From Nitrospiraceae bacterium (GTDB taxonomy: Bacteria > Nitrospirota > Thermodesulfovibrionia > UBA6902): 64,000 nt of DNA. The stretch's first letter is position 1, and every line of letters begins with the position of its first letter. This document shows, piece by piece, positions 51,582 through 57,865 of this stretch. The stretch is taken from assembly GCA_003599505.1 (NCBI GenBank), contig QZKO01000018.1, positions 26,280 to 90,279 of the forward strand. The letters are read 5' to 3'. The notes below the pieces were generated by a model. It was not told the origin of the DNA. It saw only the letters and a list, made by a program, of their open reading frames with translations, and searched no databases. The translations under genes were made by a program, and so were the position numbers.

Positions 51582-53078
51582 TCATGCAAATACGCTTACA
51601 AGACCGCTCGCTGCGCGCGTCTTCCCTTCCGCGTAGATAATTTCTTTTTCATTATTGTCATCTTTAGCGGCGGTAAATACTCCCTCTTCCTGCCCTTTGC
51701 GCTCTTTCAGGGCCACGGACATCCCCCCGACATGCATCCCCTCTTTTGAAAGAGAATCCACTATGTGCTGCATATTATTTTCAATAAACTCTCTCGTCAT
51801 CTTCTCAGTGGTATTAATGTGGACGTTCAGCATCCCTTTTTCCATGCTGACATTAATGTCAAGCTTTCCGAGCGTGCCATGATCGACAGACACGCCCAGT
51901 CTGCTGTTGCCCTTTATGACATAGACGATATTATCCAGGACTTGTGTAAAGCCTGCCGGCCTTGCGGCAGACCCTGATACTATCCCTTCCCCTCCCCTGC
52001 TGTTTCCGGTCGCTATACCTGAATTCACCGGACCTGAGCTGTCGGATATTGTTTCCGCGTTCGCGCCCCTTGGGGAGGTGTTCTGAAAATTCCGCGCTGC
52101 GTCCATATTATTAATCTCTTTTGTTTTTCCGGGTATCAGGAGGTCTTGCGGATTTTTTATCAACCCCGCGGTTTCTTTTGTATTCTCGTTTGCAATGTCC
52201 CCATCATCATGAGTTGTCTGCTCACGATGCGCGTTTTTGTCAACAAGAAGTCCCCGCGCGGCCTTCACCAAATCCACCTGGCTTGCTTCAGTATTGTCCT
52301 CCGGGTTGTCATTGATATTTTGACCAAGAGCAGCAAGGAGATTATTGCTGTCGTTTGAGTTCCCCTTTACCGGCCTTCCGGCGTCGGAGGCGGACAACAT
52401 AATTCCAAGTTTTAAACCATGTTCGGATGGAGTGCCTGGCTGGGGCAGGTTGTCTTTGCCTGTGGTTACCGGCAAATCAGGCCGGGGACCATTTTCATCA
52501 GCTCCCTGATAAGCGGTCAATATCTCATATAACAACGCCCCCGCCTTCAACCCGTTCTCACTGGAAGGCCCCGGTTTCACCAGGTTTTCTGAAGCGCCCA
52601 AAGTCCCTTCAGGTGTCGTCCCTTCAGATGTCCCACTGCCTTCACTCAGATCGGCCTGGAGATCCGGTGAGACATTCTTGTCAGCTCCCTGGAGAGCAGT
52701 AAATATCTCATGCAATAATGCCCCGGTTTTAAGCCCGTTCTCCGGCCCTTCCAATAATGCTCCTGTTGTCTTGCCGGATTCACACTCATTGATTAAAACG
52801 GTCTGTTGGCCTGACATATTAGTCAACGCAGCGGAGACCATACCTGACAATAGATCGCCCGCTATTGTTAATCCATTTCCGGACTGATCAGTTAAACCGG
52901 CGCCCGTTTCAGGATTCTCCGCAGCGCTGTTATTGCCGTTATTGTTTAATTCCTGATTGATCACGAGGCTGAATCCGGAGCCGCCTGATTGCGCTCCACC
53001 CTCAGGAGCTGCAACAGACGTGTTATTCACAGGCTGGGCTGTATTTATTTCCGGCATCGATGATGGCATCATTTCCAT
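51582..53078 (-). CDS. fliK: Hook-length control protein
   Basis: Low-complexity N-region plus C-terminal LGKLDINV...L..EGMHV domain, upstream of flgD; start placed downstream of the sigma54 promoter. Confidence 0.85.
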   Translation of the reverse strand: MEMMPSSMPEINTAQPVNNTSVAAPEGGAQSGGSGFSLVINQELNNNGNNSAAENPETGAGLTDQSGNGLTIAGDLLSGMVSAALTNMSGQQTVLINECESGKTTGALLEGPENGLKTGALLHEIFTALQGADKNVSPDLQADLSEGSGTSEGTTPEGTLGASENLVKPGPSSENGLKAGALLYEILTAYQGADENGPRPDLPVTTGKDNLPQPGTPSEHGLKLGIMLSASDAGRPVKGNSNDSNNLLAALGQNINDNPEDNTEASQVDLVKAARGLLVDKNAHREQTTHDDGDIANENTKETAGLIKNPQDLLIPGKTKEINNMDAARNFQNTSPRGANAETISDSSGPVNSGIATGNSRGGEGIVSGSAARPAGFTQVLDNIVYVIKGNSRLGVSVDHGTLGKLDINVSMEKGMLNVHINTTEKMTREFIENNMQHIVDSLSKEGMHVGGMSVALKERKGQEEGVFTAAKDDNNEKEIIYAEGKTRAASGLVSVFA

Positions 53079-53091
53079 GCCTTTATGAAAA

Positions 53092-53106
53092 GCAATCCGC
53101 ATGCCA
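53092..53106 (-). promoter_or_regulatory. Sigma54 promoter of fliK-flgDE
   Basis: TGGCAT-GCGGA-TTGC. Confidence 0.8.
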
Positions 53107-53301: not shown

Positions 53302-54339
53302 TCAGTTGCCGCTATTTTTCTCATCCCGGTTATTTATCTCATCACCTAAATCTTTTGCATTTTCTAAATTAGCATTGGCAAGGATTGCATTTTTTATCTC
53401 TGTCATTGCGTTTCCAACAGTAGAACCCGTATTGTATCCGGGATTCAGGTATTGCAAAATCTGTATCTCACCGCTTGTAAGCAACGTCGATTCGGAAAGG
53501 CTTGATGCCACGTTTAAACACAACGCGGCATATTGCTGTATTGCCTTCTGCAGCATGGTCTTCTTGCCCTGCATCGAGAGGTAATAATTCAAATCATTTG
53601 CTGATGTGAAAACTCCACCGCTTTTTGTTACGGCAGTGTTTATAAAGGAAGTTCTTTCCTCATCATGAGTCTTCCAGAAACCCATGCTTCTTGCCCCGCT
53701 TGGAGCATCAACTGTGGGAGGGGTTCCGTCAATCAGTCCTGTGAATATGTCTGATGTGCTGTCTCCGTTTAAACTTCCAGTGACTAATAGAAGTATCATC
53801 TTCATACCAAGTGTGGCATTTGTACCTATCACGCTTTGGAGTTCATTAATATACTGTGAAGGATGCGCGACATCCGTATTCAAGACAACATTTGTCAGAT
53901 TTAAGGTTCCCGGGTTATTAATATCGAGAGTTGGGTTCAGATACCACTTCAGTCCGTCGGTTACAAACACTATATCGGACAAGGTGGCAGAGAAATAATT
54001 AAATGGTCCGTCAGTTGATGATGTGTCGGTTATCGTCAGGACCGCGTCGGTAAATGTTGAACCACTTTGCCTTGTAGCGCCGCTGATGATAACAGATTTG
54101 CCGATTATACTTTCATTGGCGCCATTTTCAGTAATATGTGTTCCATTAAGGTAATTTACCTGGGAAATTACTGCATTATCAAGGCTCAATGAACCGGCGG
54201 TGTCAGTAGTTGCCGTGGTCTTGGCATTCCCTGAAAAATTTGCTGTCGGCAATCCGATAGTCGACCATGAATTCCCTGCGCCTATGATCATAAAAAGCAA
54301 TAAAGCCACTACAATCATCAAAAGTCTCTTCATTTCCAT
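53302..54339 (-). CDS. Secreted protein, paralogue of the adjacent PEP-CTERM protein, with a C-terminal GFWKTH-type helical domain
   Basis: Sec signal; Thr/Asn-rich beta region; GARSMGFWKTH...QYAALCLN. Confidence 0.8.
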   Translation of the reverse strand: MEMKRLLMIVVALLLFMIIGAGNSWSTIGLPTANFSGNAKTTATTDTAGSLSLDNAVISQVNYLNGTHITENGANESIIGKSVIISGATRQSGSTFTDAVLTITDTSSTDGPFNYFSATLSDIVFVTDGLKWYLNPTLDINNPGTLNLTNVVLNTDVAHPSQYINELQSVIGTNATLGMKMILLLVTGSLNGDSTSDIFTGLIDGTPPTVDAPSGARSMGFWKTHDEERTSFINTAVTKSGGVFTSANDLNYYLSMQGKKTMLQKAIQQYAALCLNVASSLSESTLLTSGEIQILQYLNPGYNTGSTVGNAMTEIKNAILANANLENAKDLGDEINNRDEKNSGN

Positions 54340-54414
54340 AGTCCTCCTCTTTTATATTGAAAATTTAAAAACTCGCAAGCGCGCATTCATGTCCCCGTGT
54401 CATGTACCGGAGCG

Positions 54415-55158
54415 CTATTCCGGATTAATATATTTTCTCTTCCAGAAACGTCTTATCGCCAAAGTCGCTCCGCCTGCAATAAAGAGAACTGAGCTTAGCG
54501 GCTCCGGTGTAACAGCCATCTTACCCTGAATAGACCCGGTTGCGTCGTTTGTAAACGCATACCCTCCGCCATTGGTGCCGGAATAAAAGGAAAAATCCAT
54601 GCCGAGATTTAAATAACCGCGAGACTGGTAACTCGCCTGTAATTCCTGTATGTATTGGGAGCCGTTATCATAAAACGTTATATTGGTGAGAGTTGCTATG
54701 GTATTATCCCAAAGAGGGTTTAATTGTGTCCCGAACAAACCGTCTGTGATGATAAAATTTTCAAGCTGCGCGGTAAGATATGTTGTCCCGCCGTTAGCTA
54801 TTGTAAAAAGGACAGAACCGGTTCCTCCTGAAGAGCTTCCGAATTGTAAATTATTCGGGTAACTACTGTTATAAAGAGTGTTGATTGAAATCACCGCCCC
54901 TGTAACAGGATCAACCCCTTCTCCAAAATAACTCCCGTCCATATAATTTCCACCGGTTATATTCCAACCTGAAAAAACCAGTGAGTAATAAGGTTTCTGA
55001 GAGGGACCGCCGCCGCTTCCATCCAAATATGTAAATGAAGCGGTGTAATCCAGATAAGGCAGATAGGGATATTCTGCGAACGCATTGTTTGACAACAGTA
55101 AAATACCTGCTATCAAAACAAGCGGGAACAGAAAAATTTTCTTTATTGATATTTTCAT
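54415..55158 (-). CDS. PEP-CTERM sorting-domain surface protein
   Basis: Signal peptide; VTPEPLSSVLFIAGGATLAIRRFWKRK. Confidence 0.9.
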   Translation of the reverse strand: MKISIKKIFLFPLVLIAGILLLSNNAFAEYPYLPYLDYTASFTYLDGSGGGPSQKPYYSLVFSGWNITGGNYMDGSYFGEGVDPVTGAVISINTLYNSSYPNNLQFGSSSGGTGSVLFTIANGGTTYLTAQLENFIITDGLFGTQLNPLWDNTIATLTNITFYDNGSQYIQELQASYQSRGYLNLGMDFSFYSGTNGGGYAFTNDATGSIQGKMAVTPEPLSSVLFIAGGATLAIRRFWKRKYINPE

Positions 55159-55498: not shown

Positions 55499-56713
55499 AT
55501 GAAAGAAATTAAAAGGCGGGACTTTCTTAAACTTGCGGGGGCGACTCTCGTCCTTGCGGCATGCAGCAGAGGCGGCGGTGGATCAACGGAAGACCAGTCC
55601 GGAGACCAGTCCCCGACAGGACAGCCCGGCGCGGTTTCCTTTAACTTCAGGATTACCGAGGCCCTTGTCGAAATGATCGACGGGACCCTTGTCTACTCAT
55701 GGGTCTTTGAAGACACGGCGTCAGGACAACCGGTACTCCCTGGCCCGGTCATACAGGCTGAAGAAGGAGAATTAATTTCCCTGACTATTGAAAACGGCCT
55801 CCGCGAAAACCACAGTTTCCTGGTCCCTTCAGCTCCGGGTTCGCCGGACGTAGTGGACTTCGGCATGATAGCCCCTGGTGAAAAAGTTACGAAAAGCTTT
55901 ACCGCGCCTTCCGCCGGCACATATCTTTACTTCGATCCCCTGAACGCCCCGGTAAACCGCGTTCTTGGTCTTCACGGCGCTATGGTGGTACTTCCGAAGA
56001 CAGGCAATACCCCTTACAGCGTCCCTACCCCGGCGGTCCAGCAATTGTTCAACGATCTTGGGACCACGGACCATTTCCCGAAACATGCCCTGTCACCCGC
56101 GGGCTGGCAGCGTGACCGCTTCAGGATATGGCTGATGAGCCAGGTGGACCCGGCATTCAATGCCCTGGCGCAAAGCGGGGTCATTATCAATCCCGCTGAC
56201 ATGAGAGATAACTTCCTCCCCCGTTATTTCACCATCAACGGCAAATCAGGGGCCTTTTCGTCGCATGACCACAGCGTTGTTTTAAGCGGACGGATCGGTC
56301 AGCCGATGCTGGTGCGCATACTGAACGCCGGCCTCTTTACACATTCCAATCATCTCCACGCCAATCATTTTTATGTAACTTCGGTAAACAACGTTGTACG
56401 TGAAAACGTTTTCAACATAGACTCTTTTACAATATCGCCGCTGGACCGTGTGGACTGGCTCGTGCCTTATATCAGGCCCCCGGACATCGCCGGAGACCCG
56501 GATACCCCTCTGCGCGAACTTATACCCAATGAACTGGCGCTTGTGATAGGCGGAGATATCGGCGTGCCGCAGTCTCCCCTCGTATTTCCCATGCACTGCC
56601 ATGTCGAGCAGTCCCAGACTGCTGCCGGAGGCAATTACCCTCAGGGCACGGTTACACATTTTGAATTTTTAGGCGACATCGACGGCGTGGATTTCCCGAA
56701 TGCAGGAGGATAA
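55499..56713 (+). CDS. Multicopper-oxidase-domain protein A, Tat lipoprotein signal
   Basis: KRRDFLK...LAAC; PGPVI; C-terminal HSNHLH and MHCH; N-terminal Cu motifs degenerate. Confidence 0.85.
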   Translation: MKEIKRRDFLKLAGATLVLAACSRGGGGSTEDQSGDQSPTGQPGAVSFNFRITEALVEMIDGTLVYSWVFEDTASGQPVLPGPVIQAEEGELISLTIENGLRENHSFLVPSAPGSPDVVDFGMIAPGEKVTKSFTAPSAGTYLYFDPLNAPVNRVLGLHGAMVVLPKTGNTPYSVPTPAVQQLFNDLGTTDHFPKHALSPAGWQRDRFRIWLMSQVDPAFNALAQSGVIINPADMRDNFLPRYFTINGKSGAFSSHDHSVVLSGRIGQPMLVRILNAGLFTHSNHLHANHFYVTSVNNVVRENVFNIDSFTISPLDRVDWLVPYIRPPDIAGDPDTPLRELIPNELALVIGGDIGVPQSPLVFPMHCHVEQSQTAAGGNYPQGTVTHFEFLGDIDGVDFPNAGG

Positions 56714-56734
56714 TGAACTTGAAAGGAGAACAAA

Positions 56735-57865
56735 ATGGCTTTACCGGTAATTCCCCGCGGTGAGATGCCGCCTGATGAAACTCTCGCTTTCCATAAGCAT
56801 GTCTGCCCTCCGGACTTCGGAGGTCCCAACCCTGATCCTCTCAATCCGGACTTAATACTCAGTAGAAACCTGCTCATCAGCATAGACCTTCTGCTGCCTG
56901 AAAACGCCAGAGTACCGATGTGGATAATCGAGGACCCTGATGACCCGGTAAACGGCAGGGTCTTCCCGTCCAAGACCATCCGCATCCCCAGGGGGGCCCT
57001 CGTTAACGCCTTGGTCGGTTGTGAGGGCGGCACCCACACCATCCATTGGCACGGGATTGAGCCGACCCCAATGAATGACGGGGTAGGCAAGCATTCCTTT
57101 GAAGTTGACGGCAATTTTGTTTATCAGTTTCAGCCCCGTGAGGCAGGCACTTATTTTTATCACTGCCACAAGAACACAGTCCTTCACTTCGAGATGGGGC
57201 TTTACGGACTCCTGATAATCGACCCGGATGTGCCCGGCGCGCCTTTCACCGACGGAGGCCCGGGTTTTTGCGCGGCCTTCAGTCCTGCAACAAACCACGT
57301 TATCCCCTATGACGTGGAGGCCTTCTGGGTTGCCGACGAGATTGACTCCAGGTGGCACACCCTGGGGCACGACGACTTTATGCAGGAGTGCGATCCCGAA
57401 AACCCGGTCGATCCGGCCAACTTTACACAGGACGGCTTCCTGAACGATTTCAGGCCTGATATCTTTGTCGTCACAGGCATACCCCGGAGGGTCAACAACC
57501 CCTCACCCTTCAGCGCTGCCGACGATCCGCTTTTCGGGCCCCTCGTGGCGCCTGCACTGCAGGCCGGGCAAACCCTGCTTGCGCGTATCCTTAACGCGGG
57601 CTACACCATACAGCAATTCACCCTCGGCATAGACGCGGAAGTCATCGCTATGGACGGACACGCGTTAGGGGTCCCTCCATTCCAGCAGTACTCAAGTCCC
57701 TTCCGGCTTCCTGCCGGGACGCCTTTTCGTCTCACCACGGCAATGCGTCATGACCTTATAATAACGCCGGCTTCTCCCGGGATATTTCCTGTCACTATAG
57801 AGTATTTTCACTCGGTCAGCGGAAGGAGACTTTTCACAGCCCGGACAGCCATAACGGTAATCTGA
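56735..57865 (+). CDS. Multicopper-oxidase-domain protein B, no signal peptide
   Basis: HTIHWHG, NDGVG, GTYFYHCHKNTVLHFEMGLYG; C-terminal domain lacks Cu motifs. Confidence 0.88.
   Translation: MALPVIPRGEMPPDETLAFHKHVCPPDFGGPNPDPLNPDLILSRNLLISIDLLLPENARVPMWIIEDPDDPVNGRVFPSKTIRIPRGALVNALVGCEGGTHTIHWHGIEPTPMNDGVGKHSFEVDGNFVYQFQPREAGTYFYHCHKNTVLHFEMGLYGLLIIDPDVPGAPFTDGGPGFCAAFSPATNHVIPYDVEAFWVADEIDSRWHTLGHDDFMQECDPENPVDPANFTQDGFLNDFRPDIFVVTGIPRRVNNPSPFSAADDPLFGPLVAPALQAGQTLLARILNAGYTIQQFTLGIDAEVIAMDGHALGVPPFQQYSSPFRLPAGTPFRLTTAMRHDLIITPASPGIFPVTIEYFHSVSGRRLFTARTAITVI

Follow-up and report, generated by a model that had tools for sequence, protein, structure and literature searches.

Multicopper oxidases, in the accessible part of a 2026 account (PMC13151041), are either single chains, with three or six domains, or homotrimers in which each chain has two domains, the latter being divided into types A, B and C (letters that have nothing to do with the gene names used below). 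Tandem oxidase genes are also on record, three of them in a row in Sideroxydans ES-1 by the available text of PMC5566968. The subject of this study is a pair of adjacent genes, here called A and B, within a 64,000-nucleotide stretch of contig QZKO01000018.1 from a Nitrospiraceae bacterium (the window, from whose first letter positions are counted). An earlier note, made from the letters of the window, had proposed that the two products each give four histidines to one trinuclear copper cluster, that they form an obligate heteromer and that B leaves the cytoplasm on the twin-arginine translocation (Tat) signal of A. The follow-up analysis came down on the same side. The ligands, the co-occurrence of the genes, natural fusions, a model of the complex and the presence of TatC in the source genome agree with one another, and A and B probably form an obligate heteromeric two-domain multicopper oxidase with its cluster shared between the chains, a reading drawn from sequence comparison and structural modelling.

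Translation placed both open reading frames (ORFs) and every named motif where the earlier note had them (Table 1). Protein A begins with MKEIKRRDFLKLAGATLVLAAC, in which the Tat motif KRRDFLK is followed by a lipobox, LAAC, with Cys22; profile matches to this signal were under their cut-offs (Pfam TAT_signal, E 0.0083; TIGR01409, E 0.019). Its N-domain carries ENHSF (residues 103-107) and YLYFD (142-146), its C-domain carries HSNHLH and HCH, and the stretch that follows HCH, VEQSQTAAGG, holds no type-1 His or Met. Protein B was confirmed to lack a signal peptide, to carry HTIHWH and HCHKNTVLHFEMGL, which reads HCH-x5-H-x4-L, and to have no HxH pair in its C-domain. It starts 21 nt past A, as had been claimed, and behind an AAGGAG site of its own; its N-terminus cannot be longer, because a TGA sits five codons before the ATG and leaves no in-frame upstream start. 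Both chains have two cupredoxin domains, and the Pfam matches were above cut-off in each: Cu-oxidase_3 (PF07732) at 35.5 bits in A and 46 bits in B, and Cu-oxidase_2 (PF07731) at 21.1 and 32.2 bits.

The copper ligands are divided between the two chains. Ligand columns were read from 77 A and 80 B frames at the best 80 of 493 genome-contig loci found through B. The ligand set of a multicopper oxidase, eight cluster histidines in four HxH pairs, is reached only by A and B jointly, with four from each chain as the earlier note had supposed. His101, His104, His106, His143, Cys144, His145 and His151 of B were each kept in 80/80 frames, His285 of A in 77/77, and His287, His366 and His368 of A in 76/77 each. 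Judged from these columns, an invariant and complementary pattern of this kind goes far beyond chance. Neither chain carries ligands in both of its domains, as the chains of two-domain oxidases do, the N-domain of A being as free of HxH pairs as the C-domain of B. The type-1 site (His, Cys, His and an axial Leu or Met) is complete in B and absent in A. Position 156 of B, the axial place, is Leu in 52 and Met in 28 of the 80 frames, a toggle that is usual for a type-1 site, and type-1 potentials tend to be higher with Leu in this place, as in fungal laccases and Fet3p. Position 367 of A is Cys in only 39 of 77 frames (Asp 14, Gly 10, Ser 9, Leu 3, Asn 1) and His282 is kept in 58, which is why A is considered to be without a type-1 site. 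Just past the HCH of A, Glu370 and Gln373 were present in 75/77 frames each. Glu506 of CueO serves proton delivery, and by analogy Glu370 and Gln373 may do the same.

Profile alignment of A with B by hhalign gave a probability of 98.9% (E 2.3e-17) and was co-linear from the N-domain to the start of the C-domain (A 58-286); by this measure the two are paralogues with the same two-domain layout. It paired Asp146 of A with Cys144 of B, Asn153 with His151 and Leu158 with Leu156, and set YLYFD opposite YFYHC. The description of the N-domain of A as degenerate, made in the earlier note, stands as far as its motifs and the YLYFD pairing are concerned, but ENHSF is not the counterpart of HTIHWH: it aligned with GKHSF of B (118-122), from which it would follow that the copper loop of A was lost by a deletion of ~18 residues and not by substitution. 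An ancestral two-domain oxidase gene probably duplicated, each copy then retaining one half of the ligands.

Sequence searches returned many relatives of A and of B at 50-77% identity, and the contigs behind the two sets frequently agreed in length. At the 80 loci found through B, 77 had a strong match to A directly upstream on the same strand. Another (L067) has 367 nt upstream of B, encoding the last 33 residues of A at the contig edge, which brings the presence of A to 78/80, and one (L080) begins at the B match with no upstream DNA. The reciprocal search of metagenomes confirmed 259 relatives of A, and among the best 80 of these, with B counted downstream at 80 bits or more, B was found in 70. 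None of the other ten clearly lacks B: seven have <250 nt downstream and one (L167) has 301 nt, while L135 has a 50-bit match to B residues 1-55 up to the contig end and L149 has an ORF that leaves the contig after an N-terminus resembling, by eye, that of B. Among 401 sampled genomes of the source phylum, searched at E 1e-20 or better, A was present in 7 and B in 6, and all 6 holders of B had A on the same contig; the pair was not found in the two same-genus genomes or the seven other same-family genomes of that sample. The expectation that the two gene types go together, on which the earlier note hung its proposal, was therefore borne out, and singletons were not common.

The order of the genes is conserved across >10 phyla. 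The G+C of the pair (0.55) exceeds that of the upstream flank (0.39-0.45) and the B tree mixes phyla, features that point to gene transfer of the pair. An A profile run against 1.84 billion representatives reached 187 clusters (50% identity) at E 1e-30 or better, 1111 at 1e-10 and 4571 at 1e-3. Cultured holders of the pair include Neobacillus niacini, Methylobacterium segetis, Skermanella aerolata and Salinilacustrithrix flava. Source annotations read 'multicopper oxidase domain-containing protein' or 'FtsP/CotA-like', and A in the Indioceanicola profundi RefSeq plasmid is a 'hypothetical protein'; with A so labelled in one RefSeq plasmid or more, A/B loci are probably misjudged when laccase-like genes are surveyed. 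A plasmid of Arthrobacter sp. FW305-BF8 (L090 4538-6885) carries two overlapping 'multicopper oxidase domain-containing' genes (526 and 280 aa), with Nramp, a metal-dependent regulator, a third oxidase and a cation transporter as neighbours.

Nature has also joined the two genes. A followed by B in one chain was found in 19 of 124 proteins examined: nine near the window pair (60-72% identity, with linkers of ~15-20 residues), nine in a distant clade, and P0255 alone. Four members, drawn from three sources, make up one of the fusion clusters. A tree of 100 B parts built with FastTree set the fusions at three places, with starred branches that require no fewer than three state changes. Both B motifs were present in 19/19 fusions and a recognisable HSxHxH/HCH pair in the A part of 11/19, HPH replacing HCH in the A part of the distant clade. 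All eight full-length near-clade fusions start with a twin-arginine motif (the ninth, P0130, is N-terminally cut), and inspected fusions with a full N-terminus have a single such motif, at the N-terminus. None of the 77 genome-contig pairs is one open frame. In the window A and B share one reading frame, and between them (56711-56737) stand the TAA of A, a TGA, one sense codon and a further TGA, all in frame; loss of such intervening stops may easily produce fusions. A single fused gene had been named in the earlier note as grounds for rejecting its proposal. Fused relatives do exist, and they support the coupling of A and B; in the window itself three in-frame stops part the genes. Because natural fusions exist, A and B would be expected to act as one unit in equal numbers.

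The genes show the pattern of Tat hitchhiking, with a signal on A only, a signal-less B and the Tat machinery in the genome, where TatC was identified at 234 bits. A twin-arginine motif was found in 70 of the 72 A relatives with an N-terminus, the other two being cut or containing N, and the N-termini of B are conserved in 120 relatives without any signal. Membrane anchoring, which the earlier note had claimed for the oxidase, held for the A of the window with its lipobox Cys22 and not for the family: with a lipobox in only 4/70 Tat-bearing relatives, the lipid anchor would be local to the source organism. Many B-type proteins are longer than B, at 550-1170 aa (P0123, P0124, P0249-P0254, P0259 and many more), and carry C-terminal CarboxypepD_reg, SdrD_B or other Ig-like domains, or cell-wall-binding repeats, which suggests that in some lineages the B subunit is displayed on the surface.

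One two-chain pair, A 44-404 with B, was modelled from our own alignments. The complex scored 0.97 (median of three runs) against 0.00 for the best of 3 controls, at a mark reached by 58/80 solved complexes and 2/110 mismatched pairs, counts that hold only roughly here because own alignments were used. Agreement of contacts between runs was at least 95%, the predicted local distance difference test (pLDDT) of the partner at least 94, and the interface comprised 283-289 contacts. It was formed by A residues 285, 287-290, 368-371 and 373-382 with B residues 104, 106-115, 131-136 and 147-153; in addition, the N-terminal arm of B (3-36) touched the N-domain of A at 54-80, and the C-domain of B lay against A 179-192 and 303-311. 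The modelled interface is a confident one with the two histidine sets placed face to face, and this supports binding of the two proteins.

In the mechanism that we propose, a donor would reduce the type-1 copper of B, held by His101, Cys144 and His151 with the non-ligating Leu156 in the axial place. From there the Cys144-His143/His145 triad would carry electrons to a trinuclear cluster lying between the N-domain of B and the C-domain of A, to which B would contribute His104, His106, His143 and His145 and A His285, His287, His366 and His368, and O2 would there be reduced to water. The complex would be assembled in the cytoplasm and exported by Tat on the signal of A alone, and mature A would be lipid-anchored at Cys22 in the source organism. 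We infer that the two chains form a 1:1 unit, are exported together, take up copper and act as an oxidase.

Several observations weigh against the shared-cluster heteromer or limit its reach. The gene counts describe the best 80 of the 493 confirmed B relatives. Bacillus sp. JJ1562 has a B alone despite upstream DNA (L081), and the same genome has a full pair (L076). This orphan B is followed by CopC-like and CopD-like genes (L081 5698-8937) and is, in the tree, a close copy of the B of L076. In the phylum sample one genome (G169) has A without B, but its A is a 301-aa remnant lacking the C-domain; the locus (L087, G169:C16) is decayed, with only that remnant beside two-component regulator genes. 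A further locus (L088, G245:C18) is rearranged, both genes being cut and a B-like N-terminus standing apart from the remainder of B. The good score of the complex may owe something to likeness with solved two-domain homotrimers (3g5w, 2zwn and others), which share its kind of interface. An AlphaFold2 model of the fusion P0241, with 18 fused sequences as alignment, was only moderate (pLDDT 70.9; predicted template modelling score, pTM, 0.77), with weak loops at 308-343, 356-392, 407-432 and 510-522 and low confidence in several interface loops. Known two-domain oxidases are trimeric by the accessible part of PMC13151041 and two chains provide 4 of 6 ring domains, so the true stoichiometry may differ from AB. 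Finally, the shared cluster does not account for the strong conservation of the ligand-free N-domain of A, where YLYxDPLNAPVNRVLGLHG (A 142-160, window 55922-55978), outside the modelled A/B interface, is among the best-conserved stretches of the family (Asp146 in 74, Arg154 in 74, Leu158 in 75 and His159 in 70 of 77). The stretch may have been remodelled to take a metal or a substrate, or may serve as a surface for docking.

Foldseek comparison of the P0241 model with the PDB ranked six-domain proteins first, with rat ceruloplasmin (5n0k) at E 2.7e-25 and a query-based template modelling score (TMq) of 0.47, and also factors V and VIII and MnxG (9bxa_A, TMq 0.50); three-domain laccases reached TMq 0.23-0.27. 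With a model of only moderate quality these matches are weak support. They nonetheless bear on the working unit, which, instead of a plain AB heterodimer, could be a three-membered ring of two-domain units (A2B or AB2) or some larger assembly of AB, with unchanged chemistry at the interface. We regard this as unlikely while giving it real weight: the likeness to ceruloplasmin and MnxG favours it, albeit from a moderate-confidence model, as do the free position of the conserved A face 142-160 in the dimer model and the available text of PMC13151041, in which two-domain oxidases are trimeric with the cluster between protomers. The genes, on the other side, come one to one and the 19 fusions fix 1:1 in one chain, and a closed ring of three is disfavoured because it cannot hold equal A and B.

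The heteromer might also be real and yet serve mainly something other than O2 reduction, be it the storage or sensing of copper or the turnover of hydroxylamine or nitrogen oxides. That many holders are anaerobes or groundwater bacteria, that the best NCBIfam match of A is to copper nitrite reductase and that the archaeal two-domain Nmar_1354 converts hydroxylamine to nitroxyl (accessible part of PMC11761707) would all suit such a role, but the same source has Nmar_1354 itself using O2, the nitrite reductase match is far under cut-off and confined to the ligand-free N-domain of A, and the invariance of eight cluster histidines with the type-1 triad is the signature of four-electron O2 reduction; we therefore hold it improbable. 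Less credible still is that A and B act separately as decayed tandem duplicates, only A being exported while B stays behind in the cytoplasm. Each chain does lack half of the ligands, copper-free relatives of the fold exist (SufI, 6syy, is among the weak PDB matches of B) and one orphan B adjoins CopC and CopD; decay, though, would not leave histidine sets that complement each other exactly in 76-80 of 77-80 relatives, nor does it sit with a gene order kept over >10 phyla and repeated in-frame fusions. That the locus is a pseudogene, or one gene split by a mistake in sequencing or assembly, deserves next to no credence: the common frame and the fused relatives would allow it, but a TAA, two TGAs and a ribosome-binding site lie between A and B, and the split form is the rule among genome-contig pairs.

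Table 1. Features of the A/B locus in window coordinates, with the roles proposed for them
Feature	Position	Strand	Description	Basis
Gene A	55499..56713	+	404 aa, two cupredoxin domains; predicted to give the C-domain half of the trinuclear-cluster ligands and to be without a working type-1 site	ORF, Pfam scores, ligand columns
Tat signal peptide and lipobox (KRRDFLK ... LAAC, Cys22)	55499..55564	+		Translation
A N-domain (~residues 45-175)	55631..56023	+	No canonical copper ligand	PDB sequence matches to NirK domain 1
HSNHLH (A 282-287)	56342..56359	+	His285 and His287, putative cluster ligands; His282, vestigial type-1 His	
HCH (A 366-368)	56594..56602	+	His366 and His368, putative cluster ligands; Cys367, vestigial	
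Spacer, 21 nt	56714..56734	+	TGA ACT TGA AAG GAG AAC AAA	
AAGGAG ribosome-binding site	56723-56728	+	6 nt ahead of the ATG of B	
Gene B	56735..57865	+	376 aa, two cupredoxin domains, no signal peptide; N-domain predicted to hold the type-1 site and four cluster histidines, C-domain ligand-free	ORF, Pfam scores
B N-terminal arm (residues 1-36)	56735..56842	+	Conserved; modelled on the A N-domain	
HTIHWH (B 101-106)	57035..57052	+	His101, putative type-1 ligand; His104 and His106, putative cluster ligands	
HCHKNTVLHFEMGL (B 143-156)	57161..57202	+	His143/His145, putative cluster; Cys144/His151, putative type-1; Leu156, axial place	

Comparison with families of known function gave no close identity. 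The PDB sequence matches listed for A and B covered N-domains, save for a weak one between the C-domain of A and 2zwn (E 2.1e-5), and no solved chain was close over the full length. The N-domain of B matched the type C two-domain oxidases 3g5w (E 1.9e-12) and 2zwn (E 8.9e-12), with which it shares HTIHWHG and HCH-x5-H; the N-domain of A matched domain 1 of copper nitrite reductase (1ndr, E 2.9e-8), whose ligands it does not share. Copper nitrite reductase (NirK, TIGR02376) was the best NCBIfam match of A, over the ligand-free N-domain only, and was rejected as an identity at 47.6 bits for A and 17.1 for B against a cut-off of 296.3, and in view of the trinuclear ligand pattern. The CopA/PcoA and CueO families (TIGR01480 or NF008205) were likewise rejected: TIGR01480, the best NCBIfam match of B, gave 36 bits for A and 49.1 for B against 478.95, and A and B have 8 Met each.

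The surroundings of the pair were surveyed by clustering the ORFs of the 80 genome-contig loci, picked greedily by length, and by Pfam tallies of the flanks, which took in 126 of 129 downstream ORFs (three of 1090-1800 aa omitted) and 123 of 125 upstream ORFs (two long ones omitted); some flank ORFs, those of clustering cluster 1, were spurious antisense frames. No widely shared neighbour gene was found among the flanking ORFs of the 80 loci. Downstream, the tallies were SCO1/SenC 7, aldehyde dehydrogenase 5, CusB-type HlyD_D23 3, CopC 2, CopD 2 and di-haem peroxidase 2; upstream, SCO1/SenC 2, di-haem peroxidase 2 and YtkA-like 2. Copper-handling genes thus lie beside a minority of pairs (SCO1/SenC 9, CopC 2, CopD 2 and CusB-like 3 of 249 flanking ORFs) and fit either cofactor delivery or metal detoxification. 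The PEP-CTERM genes that the earlier note had connected with the oxidase turned out not to be a conserved context of the pair. In the window, two secreted proteins without known family are encoded just upstream of A on the minus strand (53302-55158), in DNA of low G+C (0.39-0.45); the one nearer to A (54415-55158) has a PEP-CTERM-like tail at its end and a weak NF038129 match (E 0.032). Also on the minus strand, at 51582-53102, a 506-aa protein is encoded that has a FliK hook-length control domain (PF02120, E 1.9e-13) at its C-terminus. A promoter and terminator scan of the locus gave no signal beyond shuffled expectation, and no terminator-like site in the gap between A and B.

For the substrate, our ranking is a weak one, with metal-ion oxidation ahead of O2 removal with a periplasmic carrier, and that ahead of organic substrates; that copper-handling genes flank a minority of pairs is the ground for guessing at a metal ion or a periplasmic redox carrier. 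The source genome also encodes a three-domain CopA/CueO-like oxidase (L002 1357-2613, G000:C21), with a Sec-type signal, HWHG, HSH and a Met-rich stretch, in a frame that leaves the contig. A plain duplicate of the cuprous oxidase role is disfavoured for A and B because this enzyme is already there. Haem-copper oxidase subunit I and a bd-like oxidase are present in the genome as well.

If the shared-cluster heteromer is real, it would be a fourth multicopper oxidase design, one whose catalytic cluster is split between two genes, and a natural example of a metalloenzyme whose duplicated genes have undergone complementary losses; no copper oxidase would have been proposed for Tat hitchhiking before it, and A or B expressed singly would be inactive. 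We put at about even the chances of a broader claim, namely that this is the first oxidase with a trinuclear cluster made from two gene products, an obligate A·B complex exported pre-assembled by Tat and transferred through >10 phyla including strict anaerobes, that it represents a living four-domain stage between two-domain trimers and six-domain oxidases, and that the N-domain of A is perhaps a new substrate or docking site.

Export on the signal of a partner is established for other enzymes. NiFe hydrogenases and DmsAB carry signal-less partners across by Tat hitchhiking. As in these enzymes, one subunit of the A/B pair bears the twin-arginine signal; the same holds for PaoABC, whose signal-less partners are exported as a folded complex on the Tat signal of one subunit (available part of PMC4273604), and none of these enzymes is a copper oxidase. 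In the literature searched, which left out subscription journals and supplementary files, neither a multicopper oxidase using Tat hitchhiking nor a heteromeric bacterial copper oxidase was found. A 'hitchhiker' in the accessible text on the Nitrospina genome (PMC3578206) was set aside as a precedent, the word there referring to NxrB and not to an oxidase. The only heteromeric case met was that of the fungal POXA3-type heterodimeric laccases, whose small subunit is, in the available part of PMC10443355, not a copper oxidase and gives no ligands. The Nmar_1354 'heterotrimer' (PDB 9CCK) is hetero-oligomeric by description, but its two chain types are fragments of one gene in the accessible part of PMC11761707, and as the product of one gene only it was rejected as a precedent. 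Geobacter OmpB and OmpC were rejected as family members, being MofA-like large single-chain proteins in the part of PMC5566968 available.

The type C oxidases (Nitrosomonas europaea 3G5W and the metagenomic mgLAC 2ZWN) are two-domain chains with the type-1 site in the N-domain, as in B, and their cluster is set where the N-domain of a chain meets the C-domain of its neighbour, the arrangement proposed here for A/B. They are, however, homotrimers of one gene product that bears all eight cluster histidines (accessible part of PMC13151041), whereas the halves of A/B lie on two products. The type A/B enzymes (SLAC-type small laccases) share the two-domain design and Tat export with the pair and are trimeric; compared with them, A is missing both the axial residue and the second type-1 His, and 37/77 relatives have another residue in place of its Cys. 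The vestigial His282 and Cys367 of A suggest that the ancestor also had a C-domain type-1 site, and on its ligands a homotrimer of A could not build the cluster.

In the six-domain oxidases (ceruloplasmin and MnxG of the Bacillus Mnx complex) ligands occupy some domain interfaces only, as they would in A/B, and ceruloplasmin has one cluster. Those enzymes are single chains, whereas A/B would have four domains on two chains, or on one in the fusions, and the fold likeness of the fusion model, itself of moderate confidence, is modest; taken loosely, it hints that the four domains of A/B sit like four of the six ring positions in a two-domain trimer.

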